In this document: in pieces, positions 11,355 to 63,983 of the stretch
Layout: each line of letters starts with the position of its first letter
Numbering within the stretch: the first letter of the stretch is position 1
DNA from: a virus
IMG/VR virus record: IMGVR_UViG_3300010399_000034
Coordinates: 1 to 64,000 of that record
Strand: one strand, 5' to 3'
Length of the DNA: 64,000 nucleotides
Made by a program: the position numbers and the translations under genes
Notes under the pieces: model-generated
The model's input: the letters and a program-made list of their open reading frames with translations, nothing else
Databases searched by the model: none
Told to the model about the DNA's origin: nothing

Positions 11355-12158
11355 ATGGGCGCCGGACGAAGCGCAGACGTCTTCTCGATGCTGAGCGAGC
11401 TCAATCTGAGCGAGCAGAGCCTCACGCGTGCATGGGTCGCAGCGCAGTTCTTGGCGGCCAACGGCGCGCTCAACGAGCAGACGCGTCGCGCGGTGATGAC
11501 GCAGCGTGATGCCGTCTTCGGCATCCAGCAGACCATCTACAGCGCGATCCAGCGCGTCCTTGGGCCCATCGGGCAGAGCGATGCGATCCCGCAGCCGCGC
11601 CCGCTCCCGGATCTTCCACCTTCCGGCCAGCCCACGCAGCCGAACATGGTCCAAACGGACGGCCTCGGCATCGCGCCTGCGATCGTTTGGGCCGCTGCGG
11701 TCGTCGGCATCTTGATCCATCTCGCCGCGATCTACGCGGTCGTGCGCGTCATCCAGATCGGCGCCGACGCCGTCGTTCGGATGTACGCGATCCGTGAGAA
11801 CACCAAACGCCTCGATCTGCACACGCGCTCGCAGCAAGACCGCTTTCAACAGTGCCTTGCACAGACGCGCGATCCTGTACGCTGCGCCAATCTCTTTCCG
11901 CTCCCCGATCCGCAGCTCGAGGACACCACTGCGCATCTGCCGATGGACCCCGTCCTCCTCGGCGTCGGCATCGTCTCGGCGATCCTCTCGCTCGGTGTTG
12001 TCGGCTACGTCTTCTGGGAGTTCAGCTCTTCGACGCGCGGTGCGAGTGCGCCTTCGCGGATCTCGGGCGTGCGCGGGCATCCGCAGCTTCTCTCCGGGAC
12101 GGACGTGAGCCGCAGCCTTCGCGCCGACTTCGACGACGAAGAGGACGAGGACGACTGA
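11355..12158 (+). CDS. Membrane protein (two TM segments, acidic tail)
   Basis: DGLG immediately before TM1; DDEEDEDD C-terminus. Confidence 0.7.
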   Translation: MGAGRSADVFSMLSELNLSEQSLTRAWVAAQFLAANGALNEQTRRAVMTQRDAVFGIQQTIYSAIQRVLGPIGQSDAIPQPRPLPDLPPSGQPTQPNMVQTDGLGIAPAIVWAAAVVGILIHLAAIYAVVRVIQIGADAVVRMYAIRENTKRLDLHTRSQQDRFQQCLAQTRDPVRCANLFPLPDPQLEDTTAHLPMDPVLLGVGIVSAILSLGVVGYVFWEFSSSTRGASAPSRISGVRGHPQLLSGTDVSRSLRADFDDEEDEDD

Positions 12159-13491: not shown

Positions 13492-15426
13492 ATGGGCTAC
13501 TTTGCAATCCCCTCCGCAGGTATCGGCCTCCCGAGTTCCGGCGTCGGCATCGACCTCTACGTTCGCACGACCGGCGACGACAACAACCCAGGCACCGCAG
13601 CGTTGCCGCTATTGACGGTGACCGAAGCCGTTCGGCGGCTCGACTCGCTCGCCAAGATCACCGGCGTCAACGGCGTCGGCGCCACGGTGCACGTGGGCGC
13701 GGGCACCTTTCAATGGACCATGGGCCTTGGTCCGTTCTTCCTGAGCGAAGCGCTCTTCTTCATCGGGGATGGTGGCGGGCTCGTCGGCGATGACGGCTTC
13801 ACGGTACTTCTCGCGTCGACCGCGGCTCTTGCTGGCTCGGGTCTCGCAGTCGTCAAGTCGAGCGGGCTCACCGTTAATCAGTATCGCGGGAAGACGATCC
13901 AGATCCTCTCTGGCGCTGCCGCAGGCGATCGTCGAACGATTCGAAACAACACGGCGACGGACATCATCCCGTCCGGCAACTTCTCCGCCGCGATCGCGAC
14001 AAACGATACGTATCGGATCCTCGAACCGAACTGCTTCCTAGAGTTCGAGAGCTCCGCGACAGCCACGCCGCTGACGACCGACTTCCCACCAATCGCGAAG
14101 TCGTGTGGCGGCACAGTCGCGCAGGTCGACACGAACGGGACCGGCACTGCGACCGTCGCTCCGTCGATCTACTTCATCAACTTCCGTTTCCAGAACCGCA
14201 CCGGCGATGCGGATCCGACGGCTCGAATCTGCATCATCGATTCGGCGGTGACGTTCTTCGGCGTCGAGCTTAATGCTGTCACGTCGAAGACGATGATCCC
14301 CGTCGTCGACAAGACGTCCATCCTGCAAGCCGGGATGGACTTCCTCGCGAGCACGCTCTGTCTCGCTGTTCGTCCCTTCGAGGCAGGGCTCGCGACGAGC
14401 CGTACGTCGTGGTCGGGTTGGGGCGTCTCGGGCCAGGGCGCGGGCTCCATTCTCTGGAACGCGACCGCGCGCTTCATGGGCTACATCGTCGAGACGCACT
14501 CGCTCTCGATCGAGGACTGCGAGTGGCGAGCATGCGGTGGCTCGGTCCTCGCCGACGCCGCGATGATCATCGCGCGGTGGGGCCACTTCACGTGCCTCAC
14601 GTCGGGCGCTCCGACGTTCCTCATTCGCTCGGAAGCAACGGCGGCGAGCACGGCGGCGCTCCTCGTGCGCGGCAACGGTCAAGCGCAGCTCCTCAACTGC
14701 ACCATCGAGAAACAGAACCAAGGCTTCGCCATCCTTGTGCGCGGTGACGGCGGCGTCGTCAACGCGATTCCGGGGCAGGTGGGGCTCGGAACCGGCGTCA
14801 CGCTGACTGGAGAGACGAGCGGCACCGCGCCGACGAACGCGATCTGCGTGACGTACGGCGGCCAGCTCAGCTACATCGCGACGCCGACGATCTCTGGCTT
14901 CACGACGGGGACGCAGCTCTGTGTTCGGCAGAACGGCCCTGCGGGCACTGTCGTTCAGCAGTGCGACTTCACCGACCTTGCAACGAACGGTGACTGCCTC
15001 CCTGCACAGCCGATCAAGCAGACGTGGAACGCGCTCGGTGCGCTCTCCGGCTTCGCTGACGGCGTTGCCGGCACGTTCACCGTCGCAGGCAGCTTCGACG
15101 GTATGCGCGAGATCACGCGTACGGGGCTCTGGGATACGTTCCGACTTCGGCAACTGGTCGACGGCACCGCGGGCACAACGAGCGTCGAACTGTTCCGTCG
15201 CCGTGGCGGCGTTCTGACCTCGCTCGGGATCGTGTCGCGACTCTTCGGCGGTGGCGCTTTCGCGGAGGCGTCGTTGACGCCGGCTTCTGCTGCGCTTCGC
15301 GCGCTCTCCATCGGCGATGTGCTCGTCGTGCAGTTCACGGCGCGGCAGACGAACGGCGAGACGGTCACGGTCGAGCTCCTCGGCGACGTGGATGGCCGCT
15401 GGGGTCGTATCACGCGCGTCGCCTGA
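13492..15426 (+). CDS. Putative spike/receptor-binding protein with parallel beta-helix (pectin lyase-like) region
   Basis: LYVRTTGDDNNPGTAALPLLTVTEA matches the YV..G.D.N.GT...P..TI..A cap of beta-helix proteins; G/T/A-rich. Confidence 0.65.
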   Translation: MGYFAIPSAGIGLPSSGVGIDLYVRTTGDDNNPGTAALPLLTVTEAVRRLDSLAKITGVNGVGATVHVGAGTFQWTMGLGPFFLSEALFFIGDGGGLVGDDGFTVLLASTAALAGSGLAVVKSSGLTVNQYRGKTIQILSGAAAGDRRTIRNNTATDIIPSGNFSAAIATNDTYRILEPNCFLEFESSATATPLTTDFPPIAKSCGGTVAQVDTNGTGTATVAPSIYFINFRFQNRTGDADPTARICIIDSAVTFFGVELNAVTSKTMIPVVDKTSILQAGMDFLASTLCLAVRPFEAGLATSRTSWSGWGVSGQGAGSILWNATARFMGYIVETHSLSIEDCEWRACGGSVLADAAMIIARWGHFTCLTSGAPTFLIRSEATAASTAALLVRGNGQAQLLNCTIEKQNQGFAILVRGDGGVVNAIPGQVGLGTGVTLTGETSGTAPTNAICVTYGGQLSYIATPTISGFTTGTQLCVRQNGPAGTVVQQCDFTDLATNGDCLPAQPIKQTWNALGALSGFADGVAGTFTVAGSFDGMREITRTGLWDTFRLRQLVDGTAGTTSVELFRRRGGVLTSLGIVSRLFGGGAFAEASLTPASAALRALSIGDVLVVQFTARQTNGETVTVELLGDVDGRWGRITRVA

Positions 15427-36033: not shown

Positions 36034-36569
36034 CGCTACTCGTCCTCCTCGTCCATCACGTCCATTGCGTGGTCCGCTGCGAGGCGGCGTGCTGCTTGGA
36101 GATGAATCGACGCCTTCTTGATGATCTCGCGTTGTCCTTCCACCGAGGACCGGCCCGCCTCGCCGGAGTCGACACACGGCGTAAGGAGCGCGATGTCTAC
36201 CATCCAGACGAAACCGTCGCGTGCCTTTACCCAGGCCTTCGGTCCGGTGACGTCTTGGACCAACGCACGCGCCGTGAGCGATCCTCGCGGCGCCCAGACG
36301 TAATCGCCCTTCTGCACGTTCGCCACTTCCGGCGCCCTGAACGGCGGACGCTTCCCACTCGAGTCGATCACGATCACCACCCTTTCAACGCTCTCAGCGT
36401 TTGCTCTTCCGAGGACCACCCTTGCTCTTCTTCCGTTCCTTCCGGCGTCGGAGCGTCTTTGGATTGCCGTTCGCCGGCTTGGTCGAGATCTCGACGGGCG
36501 TGCTCTCGAGGAGCGCATCGAGACCGGCGATGCCCGCATTCAACGGGATGCGAATCCGCGGTACGAGCT

Positions 36570-37448
36570 TCATGCGTCCCTCATCTTCTTCCGGACCTGC
36601 CGGAGTAGCTTTGCCGACTCGAGCGCGGCTGCTTCGTCGAGGTAGCCGTCGGTCGTCTCGGGCGAGTCGTGGTTCAAGATCTTCTGAACAGCGAACCTGT
36701 TACCAGAGATCATGCCTGCTTGCAATGCTACGGTGCGACGAAGCCGATGCAAATAGATTCTGTCCTCGATGCCCGCAGCGGCCGCGAGCTCGTGAAGCTT
36801 GCGCCGACAGGCCTGATACGCTGCGCCGTTCGCGGTCCAGTCGTCCGTCTTGCTGACGGCCGTGGCGACGAGCTGACCTTCGCCGAGGCGATCGCGCAGG
36901 CGCTTCCATTCCCGCTTGGCGCCGAGCACCGAATAGACGATCGGCTTACTCCCCTTCACCACGATCCGTGTGATCCCGTCCTCGCGTGCGAATCCGGCAT
37001 CGATGACCCCAGCGTCGGTCCGCAGCACGTCCGAGACGCGCAGAGCCGAGCTGCACATCACGTCGATCACCCGGCCGGCCGTCGTCTCGTCTGCCTCTAC
37101 GAGTCGAAGGAACGGCCTCCACAGCTCGATCGGGATGGACACGGCCTCCTTGAGCCGCTTGGGCTCCTTGCGCCTCTTCCTCTTGCGGTGCGACGCCGGC
37201 TCGGGCGGGAGCTCGGCGGGCGGTGGAAGCCTGTTCCGGCGCCCCTCAGATTCGCAGAAGTCGGCCCAGAGGGCCCACGCCCAGCGGTAGTCACGCAGGC
37301 GCTTGCGGAGCATTTGCGAGGCCGGCGGGCTCGTCCCGTGGTCGCGCATCGTCCTCACGTCGTTCGCAGCCTTCCGCGCCGAGGTGATCGCCAGCTTCTC
37401 GCGATCGATCATCCACGCACGAAAGCGGTCGAGTGCTTCGGCGTTCAC
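36570..37448 (-). CDS. Tyrosine recombinase/integrase
   Basis: Catalytic set R (LRVSD), K (VKGSK), HxxR (HRLRR), H (LNH), Y (TDGY); GTG start overlapping the upstream stop. Confidence 0.85.
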   Translation of the reverse strand: MNAEALDRFRAWMIDREKLAITSARKAANDVRTMRDHGTSPPASQMLRKRLRDYRWAWALWADFCESEGRRNRLPPPAELPPEPASHRKRKRRKEPKRLKEAVSIPIELWRPFLRLVEADETTAGRVIDVMCSSALRVSDVLRTDAGVIDAGFAREDGITRIVVKGSKPIVYSVLGAKREWKRLRDRLGEGQLVATAVSKTDDWTANGAAYQACRRKLHELAAAAGIEDRIYLHRLRRTVALQAGMISGNRFAVQKILNHDSPETTDGYLDEAAALESAKLLRQVRKKMRDA

Positions 37449-37936
37449 TTGGCCCTCGTGTATTCGTGGCCGCTCTCGGTGAGCTGCCAGATGCTTCCAC
37501 CGCGATACGCGCCAACGGAGAATGCGAGATCGCGACGTTTGAGCGCGTACAACGTCGCGTGGTGAAACGACCGCACCGATCCGCCGTGATCGATCGCGCG
37601 AAGGCACGCGAGCTGCACCTTGTTCAGGCGCCACTGGCGCGGGCGTGGACTCCGGATCTCGACGACGCGCTTGGTGATCGAAGGCCCCATGCAGCAAAGC
37701 CGAGCTCGGCCGAAGAACGAATCGTTCAGCGCGCACGTGCGGATCGCCGTCGCCGCGTTCTTCTGTTGCGCCCAAAGCAGCGCGCAGCGGACATGGAACG
37801 TCCAGCACCCGAGCTGCACCGGGTTGAATGCGAGCTTCTTACAGCGATCGCACGGCACCATCTTGCGGACTTCGTGCGATGTCTTCGGGCGATCGCATCG
37901 GCACGGCCCTTCTTTGATTTTGAGCTTGGGCATCAC
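37445..37936 (-). CDS. Cys-rich protein with C-terminal winged-helix-like segment
   Basis: CDRC..., LYALKRRDLA...WQLTESGHEY. Confidence 0.5.
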   Translation of the reverse strand: MMPKLKIKEGPCRCDRPKTSHEVRKMVPCDRCKKLAFNPVQLGCWTFHVRCALLWAQQKNAATAIRTCALNDSFFGRARLCCMGPSITKRVVEIRSPRPRQWRLNKVQLACLRAIDHGGSVRSFHHATLYALKRRDLAFSVGAYRGGSIWQLTESGHEYTRAK

Positions 37937-38286
37937 GCTGGCTCCAAATGCACGCGGTTAGGTCCGGGTGTATGCGTCGCGTCCGGGTAGACTTCGAACA
38001 GGCGATCGGCGAGCTCGATGTCTCGCACGCTGCCAGTGCTCTGCCGCCAATGGAACGGTTCCGGTGAGAGCACAACGCGGATAGGCTTCGCATCGAGGCC
38101 CGCAGCGGCGCGCCACTTCTCGGCGTCACGCACCGTCTTGAAGACGTATTCGCAGCTCCCGTTCGGGCGAGCGCGCCAAACGATGTAGCCGCGGTGCGGC
38201 TCCGGCGCCGACGCGCCTTCGCATCGATCGCAGACCGACGAGAGCAGGAGCTCTACCATCGGCTCTTTGCATGTGGGGCAGATCAC
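37933..38286 (-). CDS. Zn-ribbon protein; N-terminus paralogous to 31543-31992
   Basis: CPTCKEPMVELLLSSVCDRC. Confidence 0.6.
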   Translation of the reverse strand: MICPTCKEPMVELLLSSVCDRCEGASAPEPHRGYIVWRARPNGSCEYVFKTVRDAEKWRAAAGLDAKPIRVVLSPEPFHWRQSTGSVRDIELADRLFEVYPDATHTPGPNRVHLEPA

Positions 38287-38788
38287 GGTGCGCCCTTCTT
38301 CGCTTTGCGCTTCGCGCACATCGTTGCCGCATCGAAGCGGAGTTTGCGCGCCATCGTTTCGTGCTTCTCGGCACTCGCAATCTTCACGCAGATGGAGCAC
38401 GACTTTGGGCGGTAGACGCCGTCGGCGTGCATCCACACGCTTCGATGTGCGATGTGTCCGCAGCGCGGACAGGCGTGCTTTACCTTCGCCATTTGCGCGA
38501 CGCCGCTCACGCCCCGTCGTCCTCGTTCGTATGCTCGAGGAAGCGCGCTCGATCAGCGCTCTTGCGAATCTGCTCGCGCAGGCTCTTCAGCTCTTCGAGA
38601 TCGAGCGACCACTCGAGCAAGATCGGCGTGAGCAGATTCGTGATCGCCCCGCGGATTGCGGGCGTATGAAAGTCGATTCCGTGCGCCTCGCATTGCCGCT
38701 CCGCTGCGGCGAGCGCCTCATCCCGGCTCATCATGATCACCACCTCCATGCGATCCGCGAGCGTTCGCGGATCGGAGCAGGCTGCGAT

Positions 38789-39373
38789 CTACTTCAGAAG
38801 ATGCAGGAGCGCGCCGATCTTCTCGGCACGCTCACGCGCCTGCGCTGCGCGCTTGCTCGCGTTGCCGTTGGCGTATTCGGACAGGTGGCGCAGGATGTGC
38901 CCGACGATCGGGTTGATCTCGTATTCGCTTGCGACTTCCTGGATCGTGAGCTCACGCTCGGACGACTCCCACGCGGAGATCGATCCTTGCCAGCGCGACC
39001 ACGATCCCGTGTATTCGAGCTCTACGAAACTGCCGTCATCGCGAATGAAGAGATCGGTACCCTCGTACGCCCCGCTGTTGGAACGCGGATTGTCCTCGAT
39101 CGCGCCGGGCCATTTGTCCGAGACGCACATGCCACGCCACGCGGCACGCTTGCTGCTCTCGCGTTGCGAGTCCGTCGCTAGGCCCGTGCAGCGATATTCG
39201 ATCTTCGGCCGACTACACAACGCCGGTAGCGCTCCGCCGAGCTTGGCGATGACCGCTTCGAGTAAGAGCGCATCCGCTTTGTTCTCTTCGGCGATCGCGC
39301 TCACGAGCGCGACGTGCTGCGCCTCGACCGTCTTTGCAAGCGTCTCGATCTGATTCAACGTTTCGGTTTCCAT
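38789..39373 (-). CDS. Hypothetical protein
   Basis: GAGGAGG RBS; 194 aa. Confidence 0.65.
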   Translation of the reverse strand: METETLNQIETLAKTVEAQHVALVSAIAEENKADALLLEAVIAKLGGALPALCSRPKIEYRCTGLATDSQRESSKRAAWRGMCVSDKWPGAIEDNPRSNSGAYEGTDLFIRDDGSFVELEYTGSWSRWQGSISAWESSERELTIQEVASEYEINPIVGHILRHLSEYANGNASKRAAQARERAEKIGALLHLLK

Positions 39374-39420
39374 GGTGTCCTCCTCGAACGAATGCCGCGG
39401 CTCCTCACCGTGGCAAGCGC

Positions 39421-39476
39421 TTGATCTGCGCTCGGACAGCGCTCTCGCGTGAGAGCACCTACCGGCCGAAGATCAA
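39421..39476 (-). repeat. Conserved intergenic hairpin, copy A
   Basis: TTGATCTT CGGCCGGTAGG TGCTCTC-ACGC-GAGAGCG CTGTCC GAGCG CAGATCAA. Confidence 0.8.
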
Positions 39477-39721
39477 TCCTGTCGAGCGGCCTCCCGCCAC
39501 TGGTAGCGCTGCGTTGCTTCGTTGACCTCGAGTGCCGCATTGATGAGCTCGCTCATCGTATAGGTCCGTTGAAACCGATACGGCAGCGCATCGTCGAGCC
39601 GTCGCTCGGCTTGATCCGTTTCGCCCCAACCACCCTCAGGGCAGCCTACGAAGCTTCCGAGAGCTCGACGGATGTTCGGGTTGTTGAGCGCTTGATTGAG
39701 CGTCTGTTTCTTCTCGGACAT
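39473..39721 (-). CDS. Hypothetical protein
   Basis: GGGGAG RBS; MSEKKQ start. Confidence 0.55.
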   Translation of the reverse strand: MSEKKQTLNQALNNPNIRRALGSFVGCPEGGWGETDQAERRLDDALPYRFQRTYTMSELINAALEVNEATQRYQWREAARQD

Positions 39722-39732
39722 CGCTCCCCCTT

Positions 39733-40116
39733 TCACTCGCACGCTTCGGTGCACTCCGGCGATTCCAAGATCGCGCGGACGTTGACACAGTTGTCGCCCT
39801 GCTCCGCGAGCTCGCGTGCGCAGAACGCCACCGCTTCCGCATTGCAGACTCCGGCGAACGGGCACGCGACATCGCACTCGTTCGCGACCATTTCGCATGC
39901 CTCGGCCGTGTCGATCGTCTCGGGGCCCGCGTCGAGCGCCTGCCCGGCGTCCGCGCCCGAGTCGCAGTCGTGAAGGCACGTGATCGGATGCCCGTCGATC
40001 GGTTCGAGTTGCCCGGCGTCGTTCACGAGCTCGGGGCCCGCATCCGTTTCGGCAGGAACGTGACACACGCCGCATCCGCCGAGCATGAGCACGCACGCAA
40101 TCAAGAGTCGTCGCAT
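39733..40116 (-). CDS. Cys-rich lipoprotein with DAG repeats (myxobacterial style)
   Basis: MRRLLIACVLMLGGC lipobox; DAG x4; paired Cys. Confidence 0.65.
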   Translation of the reverse strand: MRRLLIACVLMLGGCGVCHVPAETDAGPELVNDAGQLEPIDGHPITCLHDCDSGADAGQALDAGPETIDTAEACEMVANECDVACPFAGVCNAEAVAFCARELAEQGDNCVNVRAILESPECTEACE

Positions 40117-40130
40117 TTGGAAACCTCCCA

Positions 40131-40216
40131 TGGAGCGCCCGGGGGCTCGAACCCCGGACACAGGACTCAGCATGCGATCTTCGCCGCAGCAGCCTGCATG
40201 CACCAACGTGCGCCCC
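40131..40216 (-). ncRNA. tRNA-like RNA with Ala-type acceptor stem and no D-stem
   Basis: GGGGCGC/GCGCTCC-A (G3.U70, A73); T-arm CCGGGG-TTCGAGC-CCCCGG. Confidence 0.6.
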
Positions 40217-40222
40217 GAAGAA

Positions 40223-40660
40223 TCAGCCTAGCCATTCATGCTTGAGGCTATACCCTCGCGCGTAGCACTCCGGCGTAGGCTTGTTGGCAGCCTTGAAGCT
40301 CCCGGACGTGGTCCGCTCCTCTCCACCGCCTTTCGATTCCGGATGAAGCGTCAGGCTCAGCTCGTGAACGAGCGCAAAGCCCATATCCATGCCGCACCCA
40401 CTGATGCCCACAGCTTCGCGTCGTTCGTCGAATCGATATCCGAGCGCCTTAGCTACGTTGTAGCTGAGCCACAAATGATCGATGCGGCCCTCATCTCCAC
40501 ACTTGAACACGTAGAGATCGATCGCGCGGTACATGCCCGAGCGAGCGACGTGCCGAAGGACGCACGTCACGACGGATCCGGGCGGAAGAATCTCCCGCAA
40601 GCGCTCGATCGCCTCTTGCCGCTCCGCTTCTTTCTCTTTCTTGCTCGCCACGATTTCCAC
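40223..40660 (-). CDS. Phage hypothetical protein
   Basis: LRHVARSGMYRAI...GCGMDMGF. Confidence 0.7.
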   Translation of the reverse strand: MEIVASKKEKEAERQEAIERLREILPPGSVVTCVLRHVARSGMYRAIDLYVFKCGDEGRIDHLWLSYNVAKALGYRFDERREAVGISGCGMDMGFALVHELSLTLHPESKGGGEERTTSGSFKAANKPTPECYARGYSLKHEWLG

Positions 40661-40670
40661 CCTTTCAGCG

Positions 40671-40729
40671 TTGAATCCCGCTCGGAGTCCGCGTGTCAGC
40701 TAGACGCGCGGCTACCGGCCGCTATTCAA
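40671..40729 (-). repeat. Conserved intergenic hairpin, copy D
   Basis: TTGAATAG CGGCCGGTAG CCGCGCGTC-TAGCT-GACACGCGG ACTCC GAGCG GGATTCAA. Confidence 0.75.
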
Positions 40730-40731
40730 TG

Positions 40732-41145
40732 CTACCCCTGCGCTGCTTCGATTTCTTCCCATGAATCAGGGTCCACGTAGGTGTCCACGAGGTACTCTTC
40801 TGCTTCCGCGTTCGTCTCGAACGGGCCCGCCCATTCGGTGCAGTCCATGTAACCGGAAGCGCTCAGCCGAGCGAAATAGCCGTGGACGTATTCCGCATCG
40901 GCAAGGCCCTCGACCCCGTTCGGATGATCGAGTTCATCCGGCGTCCCTTCGCAGTAGTCTTGCACCGCATCGATCGTCGGATAGCCGTGCTCTTGCGCCT
41001 TTTCGTCACCGATCAGATCGGCGGGGACCGTGTACGTTTCGCCACCATTGCAGCTCACAGCCCATGCGCCCATGAGCTCGATCTCGGGGGACATGAACTG
41101 CGCTTCCAAGTGCGCCATGCCCTTCGCTCGTTCGTTGTTGTCCAT
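40732..41145 (-). CDS. Acidic phage hypothetical protein
   Basis: GGGAG RBS; FARLSASGYMDCTEWAGPF. Confidence 0.7.
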   Translation of the reverse strand: MDNNERAKGMAHLEAQFMSPEIELMGAWAVSCNGGETYTVPADLIGDEKAQEHGYPTIDAVQDYCEGTPDELDHPNGVEGLADAEYVHGYFARLSASGYMDCTEWAGPFETNAEAEEYLVDTYVDPDSWEEIEAAQG

Positions 41146-41161
41146 CGTGTTCTCCCTTCGG

Positions 41162-41216
41162 TTGAATCCGCTCGGACGAACGCGAGCCGAGCTCGCGTCC
41201 TACCGGCCGGGTTCAA
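41162..41216 (-). repeat. Conserved intergenic hairpin, copy C
   Basis: TTGAACC CGGCCGGTAGG ACGCGAGC-TCG-GCTCGCGT TCGTCC GAGCG GATTCAA. Confidence 0.8.
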
Positions 41217-41986
41217 GCTTCGCAAACCTCCCACGCGCGTTTCGCAGGATCGGTCGGAGGCCTGTAGTGTCCCCCAGCGCAAAGCAGCCCGCAGCGCTTA
41301 CAGGTCCGGCGTGGCGACGTCCAGCGGCGCGCTACCGCCCAATAGGGCTCGACCAACGGATCATCGTCGAGCGCGCTCCATCCGTGGTACGACGCGGCCA
41401 GTTCGTACAGATAACAGACATCGCGCGGGAGTCCGCTCAGGGCCGCTTCGAAGATCTCCCACGGATCTTGATCCGTGTAACGCGCGATGCTCTCCCATTC
41501 GCACCAGTCGAGCGCGCTCCGAATGTCCTCGGGAGTTGCGCCTACGGGAACCCTGTAGACTTCGAGCCCCGTCTTTCGATACGCGCGCTGCTCCTCACGC
41601 GTGCCGTATTCGTCGCCGTCCGTTTCGGCGCCTTCGATCCCGGGCGTGTATTCGAGCATGAGCTCGCACCCGTAGCGCGAGCGGACCTTGACCAGCGCTC
41701 CGCCCCCGTGATCCTCGGGCGAGGTATCACCGATCCGCTCGATCACGGTCCGGCGTACACCGCGAGGCTTGCGCTCGTGCATGCCGACGAGGGAGGCGCG
41801 AAGCTCGCGCGCACGTACATCGCCACTCTCCGGGCGCCCTGCGACGTAGTCCGCGGGATCGCCCTTCGGCTCGTATCCGCCCGCTGCGCGCCACGCTGCG
41901 TAATCGCGCAGAGCCGCTCGCGCTTCGCTGTACTCACCACGAACGAACGCGCGTTGCGCGCGTTGTAGACATGCTTCCGGATCCAT
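41213..41986 (-). CDS. Hypothetical early protein
   Basis: GGGAGGGG RBS; MDPEACL start. Confidence 0.65.
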   Translation of the reverse strand: MDPEACLQRAQRAFVRGEYSEARAALRDYAAWRAAGGYEPKGDPADYVAGRPESGDVRARELRASLVGMHERKPRGVRRTVIERIGDTSPEDHGGGALVKVRSRYGCELMLEYTPGIEGAETDGDEYGTREEQRAYRKTGLEVYRVPVGATPEDIRSALDWCEWESIARYTDQDPWEIFEAALSGLPRDVCYLYELAASYHGWSALDDDPLVEPYWAVARRWTSPRRTCKRCGLLCAGGHYRPPTDPAKRAWEVCEA

Positions 41987-42004
41987 GATCAACCCCTCCC
42001 TTCT

Positions 42005-42060
42005 TTGATCTGCGCTCGCACGGTGCGCTCGGATGGAGCGCACCTAGCGGCCGTAGATCA
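42005..42060 (-). repeat. Conserved intergenic hairpin, copy B
   Basis: TGATCTA CGGCCGCTAGG TGCGCTC-CATCC-GAGCGCA CCGTGC GAGCG CAGATCAA. Confidence 0.8.
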
Positions 42061-42240
42061 CTCAAGATCGAAAGCGATCAACTCAGCCATCATGCCGGGG
42101 CGCTCCGCGTTCAGTACGCGGAATGCGGCCGCTTCGTTGACCGCATACGCGCTGAACGTCTCGCCGTCCGCGCACTTGTAGTAGTAGCGCGATCCGCCAC
42201 CGGCCTGCCGTGCGCGTTCCTCCTGAGTCTGCCGCTCCAT
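42058..42240 (-). CDS. Small early protein (first gene of leftward operon)
   Basis: AGAGGGG RBS; 60 aa. Confidence 0.6.
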   Translation of the reverse strand: MERQTQEERARQAGGGSRYYYKCADGETFSAYAVNEAAAFRVLNAERPGMMAELIAFDLE

Positions 42241-42288
42241 CCGATCCCCTCTTTCCGGCCGGCTTCCGCCGCGCTCGAATCCTAGTAT

Positions 42289-42304
42289 TGCATGCGGCGG
42301 GCCA
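42289..42304 (-). promoter_or_regulatory. Sigma54-like (-24/-12) promoter, leftward
   Basis: TGGCCCGCCGCATGCA = GG-N10-GC. Confidence 0.55.
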
Positions 42305-42341
42305 AGTCAGCTAGGCACCCTTGCTAGCTGACAAAAGGCCC

Positions 42342-42461
42342 TGTCGGACTATAGTCCGACAACGCGATCGGCCTCGAGCTCGCACCCACACCTACATGTA
42401 GCCCTGTGAAGAAAAAGGCCCTCAAACCGTGCCGATCCGGCCCAGACTACATGTAGGTGTG
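42342..42461. promoter_or_regulatory. Palindromic operator/enhancer cluster
   Basis: Perfect 20-bp palindrome TGTCGGACTATAGTCCGACA (42342-42361); 15-bp inverted pair CACACCTACATGTAG (42387-42401) / CTACATGTAGGTGTG (42447-42461). Confidence 0.65.
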
Positions 42462-42484
42462 AGCCGGCTCGGCGCGATCCAAGC

Positions 42485-42500
42485 TGGCACGGCGCTAGCA
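42485..42500 (+). promoter_or_regulatory. Sigma54-like (-24/-12) promoter, rightward
   Basis: TGGCACGGCGCTAGCA vs consensus TGGCACG-N4-TTGCA. Confidence 0.6.
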
Positions 42501-42513
42501 TTGTAAGGGTTCC

Positions 42514-42777
42514 ATGGAAGGCGGAACGGCGAGTAGGACGGTGTGGATCGAGCGGAGCAAGGTCTACCCCGCTCCCGGCTCGAACCCGCGCTATCAATGG
42601 CGCTGGATCTACCGCCTCCGTTGCGAGGGTTTCACCGGCCCGACCTGGACTATGCCGGACGGCCGCTCGGGTGCAGTGTCCTTCGAAGGGCAGACCCTCA
42701 GCACCATCCGCCAAACGGCGGCGAAGATCGCTCGCGAGCACGGCGCGGCCGTCCGCGAAGCATGGAAGGAAGGCTGA
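42514..42777 (+). CDS. Small early protein (first gene of rightward operon)
   Basis: ORF track; directly follows the promoter. Confidence 0.55.
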   Translation: MEGGTASRTVWIERSKVYPAPGSNPRYQWRWIYRLRCEGFTGPTWTMPDGRSGAVSFEGQTLSTIRQTAAKIAREHGAAVREAWKEG

Positions 42778-42779
42778 TC

Positions 42780-43430
42780 ATGAAGCGCTACAGCGAATGG
42801 TCCCCGAGTCCGCACGACACCAAGGGGCTCAATCTGCCGGACCGGCAGGACTGGATCGTGGTCCCCACGATTCGCGCGCGCGACTCGGGCCCGCTGGACG
42901 AGTCCAACTTCGCTGTGGCTCTCGCGACGCTCGGCGGCGAGAACGCCGGAGAAGACGAGAACGGCGAGAACGGCATGATCGAGACGCACTCGTTCAATCA
43001 CTGGGCGTGCGGATGGTTCGAGATCATCCTGGCTCACCCTTCGCGCGAGCTCGAAGTACAGGCGATCGCCGATCGGCTCGAAAACTATCCGATCTTGGAC
43101 GAGAACGACCTGTCGGAGCGTGAGCTCGAAGCAGAAGGGGAGGGATGGGAGAGCTACGCCCGGCGCGACGTCACGCGCAAGCTAGTCGAGGATTTCGGCC
43201 TCAGCGATGCGGCGGAAGCCTTGCTCGACGAATCGGGCGAGACGATCTACGCGGCGTTGATCTGCGGGCACCACTACTCGGAAGGGATCAAGACTCAGAT
43301 CCAGGTCGAGCACGACGACGAAGGGCCTCGCTTCGATACGGATCAACTCGATCCGATGACGCGCGAGGAAATGGCGTTGCTTCTTCGGCTCTGCCGCAAA
43401 GAGAAGCGCGCCGCGATGGCCAAAGTCTGA
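42780..43430 (+). CDS. Phage hypothetical protein
   Basis: AAGGAAGG RBS; RDS..LDESNF...FNHWACGWFE. Confidence 0.7.
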   Translation: MKRYSEWSPSPHDTKGLNLPDRQDWIVVPTIRARDSGPLDESNFAVALATLGGENAGEDENGENGMIETHSFNHWACGWFEIILAHPSRELEVQAIADRLENYPILDENDLSERELEAEGEGWESYARRDVTRKLVEDFGLSDAAEALLDESGETIYAALICGHHYSEGIKTQIQVEHDDEGPRFDTDQLDPMTREEMALLLRLCRKEKRAAMAKV

Positions 43431-43506
43431 TCTTCGCGTTCGCTCCGGCGCACGAGTCCTACTCGTGCTCCGCGTGAGACTGCGAAGTCTGAAGGGAAGG
43501 GTTTCA

Positions 43507-43932
43507 ATGCGTGGGATCAAGGTTCCGAGCGCGGCGCGGCTCTGCACGGCGTTCCCGCAGCTCGAACGTGAGCAAGCTTTGTTGATCCGGAAGCTCGCGC
43601 ACGTGCGCGATGAACCGGAACGGCTCGGCGCATTGCTCGAAAAGGAGTGTCCGGAAACGGACGCGTATCGGCGCCGCTGCTACAACGATCCGCTCGATTC
43701 ACGGATGTGGCGCACTACGCTGGTGCTCCATGCGATCGATCTGATCCTCGGAACGTCCGGCGTAGAAGTCTTGGGCGAGCCCGAAGATTTCAGATCGGCG
43801 CCTCCGTACGAATACTGCAATACCGGCGATTCGTACGGCACGACGTTGGTCTACCACCGCGACGCGGACGCGATCCGGATCGGAAGCTGGGCTGACATCG
43901 CAGAACGGATGCCCGAGAAAGGCGAGGGTTGA
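43507..43932 (+). CDS. Phage hypothetical protein
   Basis: AAGGGAAGG RBS; YCNTGDSYGTTL. Confidence 0.7.
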   Translation: MRGIKVPSAARLCTAFPQLEREQALLIRKLAHVRDEPERLGALLEKECPETDAYRRRCYNDPLDSRMWRTTLVLHAIDLILGTSGVEVLGEPEDFRSAPPYEYCNTGDSYGTTLVYHRDADAIRIGSWADIAERMPEKGEG

Positions 43933-43934
43933 TC

Positions 43935-44237
43935 ATGGACTGGAAACAACGACACACCGAAGCTATGCGCGCTCCGCGTGGACGCGAGCTCGCGATCGTC
44001 CGCATGCTGCAAGCGTGGGAGCTGTACCGCGAGCAGCACCGACAAGCCTACGAATCCGGGATCGGAGATGACGGCGTGCTCGGGCCCGAATGGGCGGCAA
44101 TCGGTTTCGCGATCCGCGGACTCCTGAACGGAGATTGCGGACGCTTGGACTGCGGCACGATCGACGGCGGGATCTGCGACGCGCTTACCGCCGAGGGCTT
44201 CGATCCGTACATCGAGGGCGAACGTCTACCGCGTTGA
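43935..44237 (+). CDS. Phage hypothetical protein
   Basis: GAGGG RBS; IGDDGVLGPEW...LLNGDCGRLDCGT. Confidence 0.65.
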   Translation: MDWKQRHTEAMRAPRGRELAIVRMLQAWELYREQHRQAYESGIGDDGVLGPEWAAIGFAIRGLLNGDCGRLDCGTIDGGICDALTAEGFDPYIEGERLPR

Positions 44238-44288
44238 ATCTGGCCGCTAGGCGCTGAGTCATGCTCGGCGCCGTGCGAGCGGAGTCAA
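44234..44288 (+). repeat. Conserved intergenic hairpin, copy E
   Basis: TTGAATC TGGCCGCTAGG CGCTGAG-TCATG-CTCGGCG CCGTGC GAGCG GAGTCAA. Confidence 0.8.
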
Positions 44289-56601: not shown

Positions 56602-57015
56602 TCACTCTTCGTCCTTCTTTCCGCCCTCGAGCACCTTGAAGCCGGCGCGTCGTTCTTCCGCTGCAAGAGCAGGCGGCGCCGACTTGGCGAGCTCCGCCTT
56701 CCACGGCCACTGAACGATCATCGTGTCGGTCGCGTGCTGCGACAGCACGTCGATCGTGCTCATCGCGACGACGGCCGACCACGGAACGACGCAATGGAAC
56801 GGCGTGCGGTCGAACGAAAGCGTCCCAGAGAAGCCCTCGCTGTTGAAGATGAGATCTGGGATCGGGATCGCGAGGTGTCGCCCGAGATGAACGAAAAGGA
56901 TCTCGCCTTGCAAGTGTGAAGGAAGACGTACGCCGTGTCCGCGCAGCAAGATCCAGATCTTGAAGACGAGCTCGGTGTCGAGCAGCTCCTCGAAGACTTT
57001 CTTCTTGGCGAGCAT
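56602..57015 (-). CDS. sspB: ClpXP specificity factor SspB-like protein
   Basis: GVRLPSHL...PIPDL...GFSGTLSFDRTPFHCVVPWSAV; C-terminal FKVLEGGK. Confidence 0.7.
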   Translation of the reverse strand: MLAKKKVFEELLDTELVFKIWILLRGHGVRLPSHLQGEILFVHLGRHLAIPIPDLIFNSEGFSGTLSFDRTPFHCVVPWSAVVAMSTIDVLSQHATDTMIVQWPWKAELAKSAPPALAAEERRAGFKVLEGGKKDEE

Positions 57016-59676: not shown

Positions 59677-62526
59677 TCACACCGAATACCAGTCATCGCC
59701 GATCTTGGCGACGGCAGGAAATGGCATCGCATCTGCCCCAGGAACCAATGTTAGCTTCTGCGACATACAACGCTCGAGGAGCGCCGCGACCTTGTCGGCT
59801 TTGTGCTCGTCGCATTCAACGTAGATCGCGTCGTGGACCTGCGCGATGATGATCGCAGTCGGGTCGACGCTCGGAAGTTGATGCGCAAGTTCGAGCATCG
59901 AGAGGTTCATCATCGATGCGACCGTTGAGTTCTTGCTGATGATTCCTGCACTGTCGTAGCGGTGGAGGTCGTGCTGGACAGCAAGCGTGTACAAGTCTGC
60001 GCTTTCCTCGAGCTGACACACTGCCGCAACGGTCCCGGTCGAATAGAGCTCAGCGTCGCGCCAGTCACCAGCAGCCTCCGTCATACGCTGAAGCGTGTGC
60101 GGGTTCGTTGTACCGCCGTGCGCCAACCGAGACCAAAGCACGTACATGCTCCGCTCCGTGGCGTACGAGAACGGGTTTCGTGGGTAGGTTTCAAGAAACC
60201 GATCACGCGCGGCACGACCAAGACGATCATCACGACTGAAACGTTGTCGATCCGTTGGATCGCCGTAAGCGAGCTGGCTCCGCAGCAGGGAGCCAGCGAA
60301 GTTCAGCCGCCACGCCATGTGTCCATCGCGATCGGAGACATACGGTCCGTCGATACGCGAGGTCACGCCGCAACTTCGTGCGAGCAGTTGCAGGTCACGA
60401 AGCAGCTCTAGGTTCGGCGTGTTGGAAGACGGCTGCCCCATAGACAGCGTTCCGTCAGCGTCCATGTAGCCGAGAAGGAACGCTTTTCGCGCCGACAAGC
60501 AAGCACGCCAGATCGAATCTGGTACGCGTTTCGTCTTGGCACGCCAAGTCGGGTCAACCCCCCAGGAGGGGAGAAGCTGTCGAAGGCGACTATCTGCGGC
60601 CACGCTGATTGCCGTCAATGGTCCGTGAACCTGGGCCTTCCAGAGGCCGCCGTATTGTATCGCCCAGCGTGTAAAGGACGCAGCGTACTCGTCATGCGCG
60701 AAGCGTTTTACACGTGTACCGAAGCACCACACAAGTTGGTCTGTGGAGCCGGTTCGTTGCGACCACGACCCGTTTCCGATCCAATACCCGAGCCAGTACG
60801 CGTCGGCGTCATTGAAAGGGGCACCGAACTCCTGCGCTGAGGCAAGCGGCTGCGCAATACGGTCGCCTTCACGTAACTCTCCAACAGCGCGCCATTCGAA
60901 CTCGATTCCGTCGTCACGAAGCACGCGAAGATAGTGTTCTTCGTTCGTCTGAAGTACATGCCCGTTGGTGAGCTTCGTCTCCCATAGTTGCTCAGTCCGC
61001 TTTCCAAGCGTCATCGATGGAGCCCATTGATTTGGCGCGCCGAGCGACGCGGAGCACGTCGCATGTTCCACCGGGAGATAGCCTTCTGTTGTAAGAACGC
61101 GCGTCCCGCCTCGAACGCACTGCATCTTGTAGTTGTATACAACTGTCGCATCGATCAAGAGAAGCGGGAACTCGCGACGACGACCGATGAGCGCGTCGGT
61201 GACACGGCCAGTTCGCTTGGCTTCAGTGAGCTCGCGCTCGCGCCACGGCCGCACCGACGGGAACGCTTTGAAGATCGCGGCGAGGATCGTCTCGACCGTC
61301 GCGATGTCGATCGGCATGCCCTCGTAGCCGCCGTCGTAGATGGAGTTGAGGATCGTCTCCGACCCAGCGCCGTAGAAGCTGCCGTAGATGACGCGCTTCT
61401 CGAGATCGCGCAGCGCTGACCGCGTCTTGTCGTCGGCCTTGAGGTAGCCGTCCTTGAACGCGATCGCGCTCACGTACGCGTGTGGGTCGCAGTCGGGCTC
61501 GTACTTGCGCGCTTCGTCAGCGTTGACGCAGAGCGAGATGAGCTTCTCGTCGCCGCAGAGCGCACCGAGCACGCGAAGCTCAGCCTGTCCGAGGTCGGCG
61601 CCGACGATCTTGCGGCCCGGCGGCGCGACGATGCACTCGCGGATGCCGGGCACCTCGAGCGTGATCTTCCCTGGCTTCGCCTTCGCGAGGAAGATCTCGT
61701 CGCCAGGAAAGAGCGGAAGCTGCCATGGACCGCCGTGCGGTCGGCCCTTGCTGTCGAGTGCCTCGAAGATCGCAAGCATGAGAAGGATGCGCTTCCCCCA
61801 GTTCATTAGGTTCGGCTCGCTGCTCCATCTCCCGGTCCTCGCACCGAGCGGCTTCCAACGCACGCGGATGCGCCAGTCCTGCGAGACCGGCATCCCCTCG
61901 ATGTACGTCGACTTGATCTTCTCCCAGCGACGATAGTCAAGGAGCAGATCGACGAACGGATGACCCTTGTAAGAGAGCAACGACGATTTATCTGTCGATG
62001 GCTGCCCTTGTGGATGCGTCTTGCTCGGGTCGGTGTACTTCATCGGAAGCAGCCGACACGGCCCGTTCTTGTCGTAGAGCGCCCACGCGAGCTGCGGAGG
62101 ACTCGTAGGGCTAAAGTCTGGCCGACCCGTGAATGCACGCAGGAGCTCGACCGAACGCGCCATGTAGAAATCAGAACGCTGCGACCAGCGGATCCACCGT
62201 TCTCGACTCACTGGCAAGCCGGCGCGCTCGACGTCCTTCGCGACGTGGAACATCCCGACGTCGAGGTCATGGACGAAGCGTGCGTTCTCTGCTTCGAGCT
62301 CGGTGAGCTGCGAGAGCATGGAGAGCGTCGTATTGTAAACGTCGCGACCGTTGTAAGCGAAGAGCTGCTCGTTCGACTCCCAGACCTGCTGCCCGCCCTT
62401 CTCCTTCGGCGGCTTCCACGGCGGCGTGTCGGTGTAGCAGCCGGCGATGTGTTGCAAGCGATGAGGCTCGTCGGGATGAACGGCGTTGTGCGCGATCTCG
62501 GTGTCGTAGACGTAGCCGCGAGTCAT
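59677..62526 (-). CDS. polA: Family A DNA polymerase (C-terminal exonuclease half plus polymerase) containing an intein
   Basis: RTGRWSSEPNL, motif A ADLGQAELR, motif B R..EK..IYG..YG, motif C QVHDAI. Confidence 0.9.
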   Translation of the reverse strand: MTRGYVYDTEIAHNAVHPDEPHRLQHIAGCYTDTPPWKPPKEKGGQQVWESNEQLFAYNGRDVYNTTLSMLSQLTELEAENARFVHDLDVGMFHVAKDVERAGLPVSRERWIRWSQRSDFYMARSVELLRAFTGRPDFSPTSPPQLAWALYDKNGPCRLLPMKYTDPSKTHPQGQPSTDKSSLLSYKGHPFVDLLLDYRRWEKIKSTYIEGMPVSQDWRIRVRWKPLGARTGRWSSEPNLMNWGKRILLMLAIFEALDSKGRPHGGPWQLPLFPGDEIFLAKAKPGKITLEVPGIRECIVAPPGRKIVGADLGQAELRVLGALCGDEKLISLCVNADEARKYEPDCDPHAYVSAIAFKDGYLKADDKTRSALRDLEKRVIYGSFYGAGSETILNSIYDGGYEGMPIDIATVETILAAIFKAFPSVRPWRERELTEAKRTGRVTDALIGRRREFPLLLIDATVVYNYKMQCVRGGTRVLTTEGYLPVEHATCSASLGAPNQWAPSMTLGKRTEQLWETKLTNGHVLQTNEEHYLRVLRDDGIEFEWRAVGELREGDRIAQPLASAQEFGAPFNDADAYWLGYWIGNGSWSQRTGSTDQLVWCFGTRVKRFAHDEYAASFTRWAIQYGGLWKAQVHGPLTAISVAADSRLRQLLPSWGVDPTWRAKTKRVPDSIWRACLSARKAFLLGYMDADGTLSMGQPSSNTPNLELLRDLQLLARSCGVTSRIDGPYVSDRDGHMAWRLNFAGSLLRSQLAYGDPTDRQRFSRDDRLGRAARDRFLETYPRNPFSYATERSMYVLWSRLAHGGTTNPHTLQRMTEAAGDWRDAELYSTGTVAAVCQLEESADLYTLAVQHDLHRYDSAGIISKNSTVASMMNLSMLELAHQLPSVDPTAIIIAQVHDAIYVECDEHKADKVAALLERCMSQKLTLVPGADAMPFPAVAKIGDDWYSV
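59929..61119 (-). mobile_element. Intein with LAGLIDADG homing endonuclease in the DNA polymerase
   Basis: ...YKMQ|CVRGGTRVLTTEG...GIISKN|STV; AYWLGYWIGNG and AFLLGYMDADG; 397 aa. Confidence 0.9.
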
Positions 62527-63983
62527 GCGACACCCCACACGCTCTGTATGACCTGCGTGTCGTAAATCCCGTTTTGAAAACACTTCTTGAAGCGCTCGTC
62601 TTGCAACCAGCGAACGACTGTCTCGAGCAGCGGATCACCGCGCTTCATCCCGATCGTGTTGAGAACGACGGCCGCTTCGCGTTGCGTCCAGTCGACTGTC
62701 GGTCGTCCCTTGTGCAGCCCGATGCAACGAATCTCCGTGACGGTCCACGGATCCTTCGAGTCGGTCTCGATGTCGACCGACGTGAAGAGTGGCGGCGTTT
62801 CATCGCCGAAGAGGTAGCGTTCCAGAAACTCGAGTGAAGCCTTGTAAGCTTCGGTCTTGACCAACGGCGCCTGATACTCCTGACCCGTACGAGCGAGCTC
62901 CGCCTCGAGCCCACACTCCATGTGATCGGGAAGAACGATGTACTGGTACTCCCACTTCGCATCTTCGGTCAGGAGCCGTTGCGCCTTGCGCAGATGTGCG
63001 AGCGACGCGTTGATCATGAACTGCCCGGCGGCCGTCTTCTTCTCCTTGCCGTCTGGCTGCCGTAGAAGGAACGCTGGGTGGTACGTCGGGATCACGTACG
63101 CGCACGGGAGATCCACGCGCGCGAACTCGTCCATCTTCGCGTAGTCGGGCGCGTGCCGACCACGATAGAGCGCGCCTGCTGACGCCATCAGCTTGTGCTG
63201 CGTCTTCCAGAGCTGAAGCTCGACCTGCTGTGTCTTGCGCCCAGCACACGTCGGACAGCGCTTCTTGCGCTTCTCGATCGTAACGGTGTCGTATCGGTGA
63301 CTCCATGCCGGAGCCATTGTCCCGCCGCCCTCGATACGGTCTTCATTCAACGCGCGATCGCTCACGAGGCCAGCGCAGACAAAGTCAGACAGGCCAGCCG
63401 CGCGAGCAGAGACCTGCTGTCCGCACCACGCGTCCCAACCCGGCGGAAGAAGCTGTTCGCTCTTACACTGCGCGCACTTCCACCACGCGAGCGTCATCTC
63501 GCCATTGCACTGCGGGCAGTTGAGGGGCTTGCCGGCAGAGTCCTTGAAGAGCGGAACGCGCGCCGTCTTGGCGACGAAGCGTCCGGTAAGCGCGGAGAGC
63601 GCGCCAGCTCCGAGCGCGACGATGACGCGCGGCTGAAGCATCTCGATCTCGGCGAGAAGGCGAGGACGACACTTCGGGATCGCCGCTTCGACTTGGTCGT
63701 CCTTCGTACCATGCTCAGGGAGGCAAAGCTCAGCGTTGGAAACGTAACAATGTCGTCGCTCTATACCAACCATCGAAAGGAGCTTGTCGAGCAGACTGCC
63801 GGAGCGGCCAACGAAGGGCACTTTGAGTTGTGCCTCCTGGAGACCTGGTCCTTCGCCGACGAGCATCAGCCCGTTGAACTCGTCAGGGCGCTGCGAAAGG
63901 CAGATCGTACGATCGCGCCGACCGACGAGCGGACAGCCCGCACAATCAGCGATCCGATGGTCGTACACGTACTGATACGCCAT
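62523..63983 (-). CDS. Uracil-DNA glycosylase family 4-like domain with Zn-ribbon insertion fused to N-terminal half of 3'-5' exonuclease
   Basis: CAGC, LVGEGPG..E....PFVGRSG, PTYHPAFLLR; then VDIETD (ExoI) and FQNGIYD (ExoII). Confidence 0.85.
   Translation of the reverse strand: MAYQYVYDHRIADCAGCPLVGRRDRTICLSQRPDEFNGLMLVGEGPGLQEAQLKVPFVGRSGSLLDKLLSMVGIERRHCYVSNAELCLPEHGTKDDQVEAAIPKCRPRLLAEIEMLQPRVIVALGAGALSALTGRFVAKTARVPLFKDSAGKPLNCPQCNGEMTLAWWKCAQCKSEQLLPPGWDAWCGQQVSARAAGLSDFVCAGLVSDRALNEDRIEGGGTMAPAWSHRYDTVTIEKRKKRCPTCAGRKTQQVELQLWKTQHKLMASAGALYRGRHAPDYAKMDEFARVDLPCAYVIPTYHPAFLLRQPDGKEKKTAAGQFMINASLAHLRKAQRLLTEDAKWEYQYIVLPDHMECGLEAELARTGQEYQAPLVKTEAYKASLEFLERYLFGDETPPLFTSVDIETDSKDPWTVTEIRCIGLHKGRPTVDWTQREAAVVLNTIGMKRGDPLLETVVRWLQDERFKKCFQNGIYDTQVIQSVWGVA

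Follow-up and report, generated by a model that had tools for sequence, protein, structure and literature searches.

A tRNA-like element that cannot decode at a gene junction of an uncultured soil virus, a candidate RNA-processing signal

The question raised by this locus is what an RNA with the ends of an alanine tRNA and no anticodon loop may do between two viral genes. The DNA analysed (the window) is the first 64 kb of the 86,806-base-pair (bp) IMG/VR viral record IMGVR_UViG_3300010399_000034, which belongs to an uncultured soil virus and has direct terminal repeats and 63% G+C. On its minus strand, positions 40131 to 40216 hold an 86-nucleotide (nt) tRNA-like element (nt 1 at 40216, nt 86 at 40131), which is present in single copy in the genome and fills the 106-nt gap between two minus-strand genes, on the same strand as both. 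A preliminary description had read it as an RNA with alanine identity elements and the geometry of a transfer-messenger RNA (tmRNA), and had proposed a tmRNA mimic, a decoy for anticodon nucleases or a processing signal as its function. We conclude that it is a real, structured element of tRNA type that cannot decode, and our analysis points to a processing signal, of the kind known as t-elements, as its most likely role.

Re-reading of the minus strand from 40216 to 40131 returned the quoted 86 nt exactly, and the parts assigned to its two ends were confirmed. The acceptor 5' strand GGGGCGC (G1-C7, 40210-40216) is able to pair over 7 bp with the 3' strand GCGCTCC (G79-C85, 40132-40138), whereby G3 (40214) faces U83 (40134), the equivalent of G3:U70, and A86 (40131) takes the place of discriminator A73. 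In the T-arm (40139-40157), CCGGGG and CCCCGG flank the 7-nt loop TTCGAGC as a 6-bp stem (8 bp in the fold of minimum free energy), and GGTTCGAGCCC at 40143-40153 is a perfect GGTTCRANYCC with the GTTCRANYC loop and the G53:C61 pair of tRNAs. The start GGGGC..., G3:U70, A73 and a T-arm identical to that of real tRNA-Ala genes are thus common to the element and tRNA-Ala, while a D arm, an anticodon loop and a match to the Rfam tRNA model RF00005 at E<=10 are lacking from the element, and its acceptor and T stems form a 13-bp stack. Between the two ends lie a 10-nt linker, ACGTTGGTGC (nt 8-17, 40200-40209), which contains UGG or else forms the 3' part of a D-like hairpin (nt 6-9/14-17), and nt 18-59 (40158-40199), which replace the anticodon arm and variable region by one long irregular hairpin with an apical triloop. 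By eye, U12-G13-G14 can be aligned with the uGG in the consensus of the Rfam tmRNA model. As had been claimed, the long arm has no canonical anticodon loop: its alternative 7-nt loops are without U33, and no 7-nt loop with U33 on a 5-bp stem was found. No CCA is encoded after A86, the next bases being T and GGGAGG, the Shine-Dalgarno sequence (SD) of the downstream open reading frame (ORF; ATG at 40116). In a search of public runs the sequence was present in one DNA run, probably that of the source soil sample, and no RNA sequencing run holding the element was listed. Since an independent Logan assembly of the DNA run was identical to window positions 39300-41300, with no difference over 2 kb, the element is not an assembly artefact.

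How often this geometry arises by chance was assessed with shuffled and natural sequences. Under loose criteria the genome had two matches, compared to a mean of 0.39 per shuffle, and 27.5% of 200 shuffles had at least one. Under strict criteria, which ask for a Watson-Crick-only T stem with G53:C61, a TTCRANN loop and a directly adjoining 7-bp acceptor with no more than one G:U pair, the element was the only match in the genome and none of 300 dinucleotide shuffles had any. Since the strict criteria were chosen post hoc, a natural-sequence control was added, consisting of 2.0 Mb of viral and metagenomic DNA (254 loci, some of them fetched by T-arm patterns, which inflates the tRNA count and not the non-tRNA count). 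Here, 59 distinct strict matches were obtained, and 56 of them overlapped tRNAs called by ARAGORN. The acceptor/T-arm module is, because of this near confinement to tRNAs, a specific tRNA signature, and we therefore take the element to be, very probably, tRNA-derived or tRNA-mimicking. The three matches not called by ARAGORN (L085:5941-6023, L085:6601-6675 and L097:12315-12390) are tRNA-shaped, have a perfect acceptor and T-arm and lie in viral contigs which carry ordinary tRNAs too; one of them has a TCT anticodon loop and, apparently, no D arm.

By none of the detectors used does the element qualify as a tRNA or a tmRNA. ARAGORN in default mode called no tRNA or tmRNA gene in the window or in the whole genome, and its tmRNA mode returned nothing, nor is there an mRNA-like domain with tag frame and pseudoknots in the 86 nt. 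Only the relaxed setting (-ps90) made a call at the element, a tRNA-Asp(atc) with a mismatched acceptor. At gathering thresholds, Rfam gave no match in the 64-kb window. At E<=10, RF00005 matched neither genome-wide nor on a 104-nt stretch, and the tmRNA model RF00023 gave no match in scans of 551 nt, of the genome and of 104 nt; both models matched in 14 of 14 known genomes used as controls. The best Rfam match was to mascRNA-menRNA (RF01684), through the T-arm and closing stem, with 16.3 bits against a gathering score of 42.5 and E values of 0.32-1.7; membership in this eukaryotic mascRNA/MEN-beta family was rejected, the sub-threshold match not being meaningful. The 52 nt in the middle of the element were similar to four genuine tRNA-Ala genes only at the level of shuffles (500 shuffles, fraction equal to or above the observed 0.11-0.66).

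Folding with RNAfold modified one part of the earlier picture, the 10-nt unpaired D region. The fold with a 7-bp acceptor and this region unpaired is possible at -41.2 kcal/mol, whereas in the preferred fold, with the minimum free energy of -45.5 kcal/mol, the acceptor is reduced to 5 bp, the T stem has 8 bp and a D-like hairpin of 4 bp is formed. In the ensemble the D-like hairpin (nt 6-9/14-17) has P of about 0.99; acceptor pairs 1-5 have P=1.0 in isolation and pairs 6-7 compete with the hairpin. The T-arm hairpin was retained with P of 0.79-1.0 across all five flank lengths tested. The probability of the acceptor pairs drops as the flanks are lengthened, as would apply to folding in a transcript; since seven genuine tRNAs swing alike, with six of the seven falling to 0.1 or less at one length at least, no conclusion is drawn from this drop.

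The position of the element speaks to its function. Upstream lies a gene for a 145-aa protein (40223-40660, minus strand; phrog_12365, function not assigned), whose stop codon TGA (40223-40225) is 6 nt before the element, and downstream a 127-aa ORF (39733-40116, minus strand), whose SD, GGGAGG at 40124-40129, follows 1 nt after it. The downstream product, MRRLLIACVLMLGGC..., is a predicted lipoprotein on the basis of a signal peptide read by eye, and has no Pfam or PHROG match. The same region contains a junction hairpin repeat of about 56 nt, with copies on the minus strand at 39421-39476, 40671-40729, 41162-41216 and 42005-42060 and a fifth on the plus strand at 44234-44288. Its outer stem is TTGAW/WTCAA, its internal-loop motifs are GGCCGSTAG and YSCGAGCG, and its central stem is variable and always paired; it has no Rfam match in the window. 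Two further copies (11423-11462 and 13810-13845, minus strand) were found in L105, a second virus of about 86 kb with direct terminal repeats, which has no detectable protein similarity to this one despite the common hairpin, and over the seven copies 15 of 20 predicted pairs show compensatory changes. Each copy in the window lies between a stop codon and the next SD. From 42060 to 39421 on the minus strand there are five junctions with a structured element, four hairpins and the tRNA-like element, and all five structures start at, or 0-6 nt past, the upstream stop and end just before the next SD. At the element neither a sigma-70-like promoter nor an intrinsic terminator was found. Since the like junctions carry structures and the element has no promoter or terminator of its own, it appears to lie within a polycistronic early transcript, at a site of the kind that this virus uses for cis-acting RNA structures. 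Further upstream, 42241-42513 is a probable divergent control region, the minus-strand operon seeming to start with a 60-aa gene (42058-42240); there, a plus-strand sigma-70-like promoter match (42328-42355) overlaps a minus-strand terminator-like hairpin (42341-42362).

Among the functions proposed earlier, a signal for RNase P and RNase Z would fit this placement best, because the element fills a junction in a block with four junctions occupied by covarying hairpins. The reading that we prefer, tentatively and at a little below an even chance, is that RNase P and a 3' nuclease cut out a non-decoding, tRNA-derived element, which in this way separates two cistrons. The element would be transcribed within a leftward early operon, starting probably near 42.3 kb and running through the gene for a tyrosine integrase (36570-37808, minus strand; PF00589, 33.1 bits; phrog_216), which lies 2.3 kb beyond the element on the same strand. 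Its acceptor/T-arm minihelix would be a substrate of the kind accepted by the host enzymes of tRNA maturation: a cut by RNase P would fall 5' of G1, 6 nt past the stop codon of the upstream gene, and on the other side trimming by RNase Z or a 3' exonuclease would end at the discriminator A, with 1 nt left ahead of the lipoprotein gene's SD. These cuts would uncouple the upstream mRNA from the lipoprotein mRNA, and the four covarying hairpins at the neighbouring junctions may have the same punctuating role. Alanyl-tRNA synthetase (AlaRS) charges acceptor/T minihelices with G3:U70 and needs little beyond this pair in the acceptor helix. The released RNA of about 86 nt could thus gain CCA and then, because of its G3:U70 and A73, possibly alanine. 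That the element is transcribed, cleaved, given CCA and charged, and that the virus gains from it, is in each case what we infer.

Comparable RNAs are known. In plant mitochondria, t-elements, found by the GGTTCRANYCC motif, have degenerate tRNA-like folds, are cut by RNase P and RNase Z at mRNA ends and gain non-encoded C or A residues, as described in passages of PMC1920247. The element resembles them in its non-canonical tRNA-like fold, its well-kept GGTTCRANYCC T-arm and its location at a cistron boundary, as t-elements are located at mRNA boundaries in multi-gene transcripts. They are organellar and their ends have been mapped experimentally, whereas the element is viral and known from its DNA sequence alone, and no homology between them is implied. 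For bacteria and phages, passages of PMC11143913 name pre-tmRNA, phage M3 RNA, the C4 RNA of P1/P7 and polycistronic operon mRNAs as RNase P substrates; the C4 antisense RNA, the phi80 M3 RNA and the polycistronic mRNA sites are non-tRNA substrates in phage or operon transcripts, as is proposed for the element. C4 RNA pairs with a target on its own transcript, whereas the only complement of the element, a perfect 14-nt match between nt 30-43 (the apex of the long arm) and 42718-42731 (minus strand), 2.5 kb upstream, is probably due to chance. Complementarity as good was found genome-wide for 12% of 500 shuffled elements and 17% of 400 natural windows, and locally for 24 of 1000 natural windows; moreover, the site lies on the antisense strand of what is probably a plus-strand gene (G+C at third codon positions, GC3, of 0.80 versus 0.55). 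On these controls an antisense partner at this site was rejected.

Several observations weigh against excision as the function. The predicted ensemble favours a fold with only a 5-bp acceptor, the minimum free energy has a z-score of only -2.17, with five of 200 shuffles folding equally well, and the acceptor and T stems stack over 13 bp (7+6 or 5+8) and not 12, one more than tRNA-processing enzymes normally measure. The strict geometric criteria were set after the element had been seen, and the GGTTCRANYCC motif alone is not enriched in the genome (one occurrence versus 0.56 expected). Punctuation is not obligatory either, since the junction at about 39733 of the same operon is tightly coupled and has no structured element. 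On the same side stands the lack of conservation. A covariance model of the element matched its own genome only, with 115 bits, among 50 whole viral records, and gave nothing credible in 170 further loci, where the best match other than itself was a true phage tRNA-Ala(UGC) with 22.7 bits. Patterns of its 3' end had no match in 2.9 million viral contigs, and the 13 metagenome loci with the 3'-end pattern held no look-alike. Finally, the virus is without close relatives as judged by its family-A DNA polymerase, for which the lineage marker search gave no match.

Other searches for relatives had the same outcome. With the 13-bp spacing the 3'-end pattern had no match in viral contigs, versus 18 with canonical spacing, and a canonical-spacing version of the element's own 3' end again had none there. 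A degenerate pattern led to 21 loci, all of which were ordinary tRNAs or chance matches on inspection. The protein encoded upstream has homologues, all annotated as hypothetical, in phages of many hosts (Gordonia, Caulobacter and others), the closest one other than itself having 51-53% identity in a search of 5.8 billion proteins. Four members of its cluster are the same virus with different start calls; one of them, in the 90% cluster (protein P0123), has the same first ~110 residues followed by a different, shorter C-terminus, and has the appearance of a variant of that virus or of a frameshifted read. In 80 viral loci with phrog_12365 homologues (35-50% identity), plus the window's own locus L001 (81 scanned), ARAGORN found no tRNA; a relaxed geometry scan of these loci gave 163 raw matches, judged spurious by inspection, and the matches at the syntenic position (L038, L041, L043 and L066, identical over the stretch shown) were rejected as a small ORF and an ordinary hairpin. 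In a phage GenBank collection there was no DNA match to 36500-44000. An 86,416-bp genome reached through L105 (G001) lacks a phrog_12365 homologue, shows neither a DNA match nor a match to the element model, and is not a demonstrable relative, because tblastx gave only scattered fragments of about 30 bits. A 98-nt 'tRNA-Ala(ggc)' called in it by default ARAGORN (39897-39994, that is, about 297-394 of L223) was judged a false positive; it lies within an ORF in GC-rich coding DNA, with a non-Ala acceptor start (TGACGAG) and mismatched stems. Complete ARAGORN-called tRNA-Ala genes in L251, L252 and L253 have an extra C at the border of T loop and T stem: TTCGAG is followed there by six C's, so that either the T loop has 8 nt or the sixth pair is mispaired. 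The element is thus an orphan, with no relatives detectable in viral, metagenome or genome collections.

Such an orphan could be a functionless relic of a phage tRNA-Ala gene with scrambled D and anticodon arms, any cleavage by tRNA enzymes being incidental. Its ends agree with those of tRNA-Ala, a phage tRNA-Ala was what the model matched best apart from the element itself, ATCGCAT in the long arm resembles the anticodon loop ATCGCAC of the real tRNA-Ala(CGC) in L251, no conservation was found, and the genome has no other tRNA according to ARAGORN. However, neutral decay should break stems like loops, and all 13 acceptor/T pairs and the ~15-bp long arm are intact. Since the three helices are preserved although the middle 52 nt have no residual similarity to the four tRNA-Ala genes, selection on structure would seem to account for the element better than neutral decay. 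Its place exactly between a stop codon and an SD, like that of the functional-looking hairpins nearby, also argues against a relic, and we regard this explanation as unlikely.

Somewhat less probable still is a mimic acting in trans, that is, an excised mini-tmRNA which binds SmpB, and perhaps AlaRS and EF-Tu, and damps ribosome rescue and tagging in the host during infection. This possibility, raised in the preliminary description, has a precedent in Mycobacterium phage DS6A, listed among tmRNAs as having the tRNA-like domain (TLD) only. The DS6A RNA is little more than this domain, and a molecule of this sort is described as a strong inhibitor of tmRNA that may act by titrating SmpB (passages of PMC4131195); PMC11915505 also mentions the DS6A case and puts the number of 'Standard, no CDS' tmRNAs at nine. 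We compared the element with the DS6A RNA (JN698994 28478-28557, L260:579-658). Both are phage-encoded, unannotated, intergenic, devoid of an encoded CCA and missed by ARAGORN; in both, the layout can comprise an Ala-type acceptor of 7 bp that includes G3:U70, some 10 unpaired nt containing UGG, a long helix where a tRNA has its anticodon arm, and a T-arm, within 80 nt in DS6A and 86 nt here, and they start about 10 and 6 nt, respectively, after the upstream stop. In topology the two RNAs are parallel. In contrast, the stack has 13 bp in the element and 12 in the DS6A RNA, as in tRNA and tmRNA, and the DS6A ensemble keeps a stable 7-bp acceptor (P of at least 0.91), whereas the element loses pairs 6-7 to the competing hairpin. 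RF00023 recognises the DS6A RNA with 43.2 bits (E 1.3e-15, the whole middle being skipped), which served as a positive control for the negative result with the element, and the covariance model of the element gives the DS6A RNA only 14.7 bits. Besides, the element abuts the next SD, while behind the DS6A RNA comes a spacer of about 120 nt. As for partners, no gene for SmpB, a tRNA_SAD (AlaX-type) domain or RtcB was found in the virus, nor a CCA-adding enzyme above the cut-off (PolyA_pol reached a sub-threshold 11.9 bits). An SspB-like adaptor, which the preliminary description had counted among the gene products, could not be established: the only such signal in the genome is a partial Pfam match of 13.3 bits (cut-off 27) at 56758-56874 (minus strand), in a 191-aa open frame. 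The element may work as a decoy of the TLD-only type, but its membership of the tmRNA family could not be detected.

A related proposal does without tmRNA ancestry. The virus would encode an anticodon-less, alanine-accepting RNA of independent origin that titrates SmpB, AlaRS or EF-Tu after excision, as a second, convergent route to a decoy of DS6A type, and would belong to a broader class of phage alanine-type tRNA mimics that is for the most part unannotated. The absence of detectable homology and the 13-bp stack are the reasons for assuming independence from tmRNA, and we consider the proposal as a whole improbable.

We give equally little credence to a generic intercistronic structure, an mRNA stabiliser or spacer, with coincidental likeness to a tRNA. 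It would be in line with the frequency of the loose geometry in shuffles, with a T-loop motif not enriched on its own, with the readiness of GC-rich DNA to fold, as reflected in the modest z-score, and with the silence of all tRNA and tmRNA models. Against coincidence stand the absence of the strict geometry from all 300 shuffles, its near confinement to tRNAs in natural DNA and the alanine identity set of GGGGC..., G3:U70 and A73.

Very improbable, in our judgement, is an attP site or integration remnant, in which the nearby integrase would use a sequence copied from the 3' end of a tRNA or tmRNA gene of the host. The integrase lies on the same strand, and in other viral and metagenome contigs there are 3' fragments of Ala-type tRNA or tmRNA genes that have this T-arm, several of them near locus ends and most without the 5' acceptor strand. 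Many of the loci L228-L245 (viral) and L246-L258 (metagenome) have only the 3' part of such a gene, ending in ...GCTCCACCA or ...GCTCCATACC; most of the 18 viral matches of canonical spacing have the appearance of 3' fragments, with several close to the ends of their loci, and in 10 of the 13 metagenome loci no 5' strand was present in the ~100 nt scanned upstream. The loci with only the 3' part look like att sites of prophages in tRNA-Ala or ssrA. Unlike these fragments, the element has both acceptor strands; its 13-bp spacing is non-canonical, and it is not adjacent to int. The 21-mer from its T loop to its 3' end occurs once in 185,579 species genomes, at a place without T stem or tRNA, although the host may be unsampled. 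The decoy for anticodon nucleases proposed earlier is disfavoured, because the RNA would have no anticodon stem-loop to cut.

Elsewhere in the window, the ORF of the family-A DNA polymerase (59677-62583, minus strand, 968 aa) contains a LAGLIDADG-type domain at residues 699-761, which suggests an intein or an inserted homing endonuclease, and it adjoins a gene of the uracil-DNA-glycosylase superfamily (62523-63983).

A single, unconserved instance motivates an experiment and cannot settle the question of function. The kinship of the element is one of kind: mini-tmRNA-like RNAs of phages and t-element-like RNAs are already known, and it is a variant of them without detectable relatives. Standard annotation misses it, as it misses the mini-tmRNA of DS6A, since ARAGORN finds neither. 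The element shows that an RNA of this type can exist without detectable tmRNA ancestry, in a virus lineage without known relatives. If it is true that phages repeatedly carry non-decoding look-alikes of alanine tRNAs, these may represent an under-counted route by which viruses process their messengers or interfere with ribosome rescue in the host.

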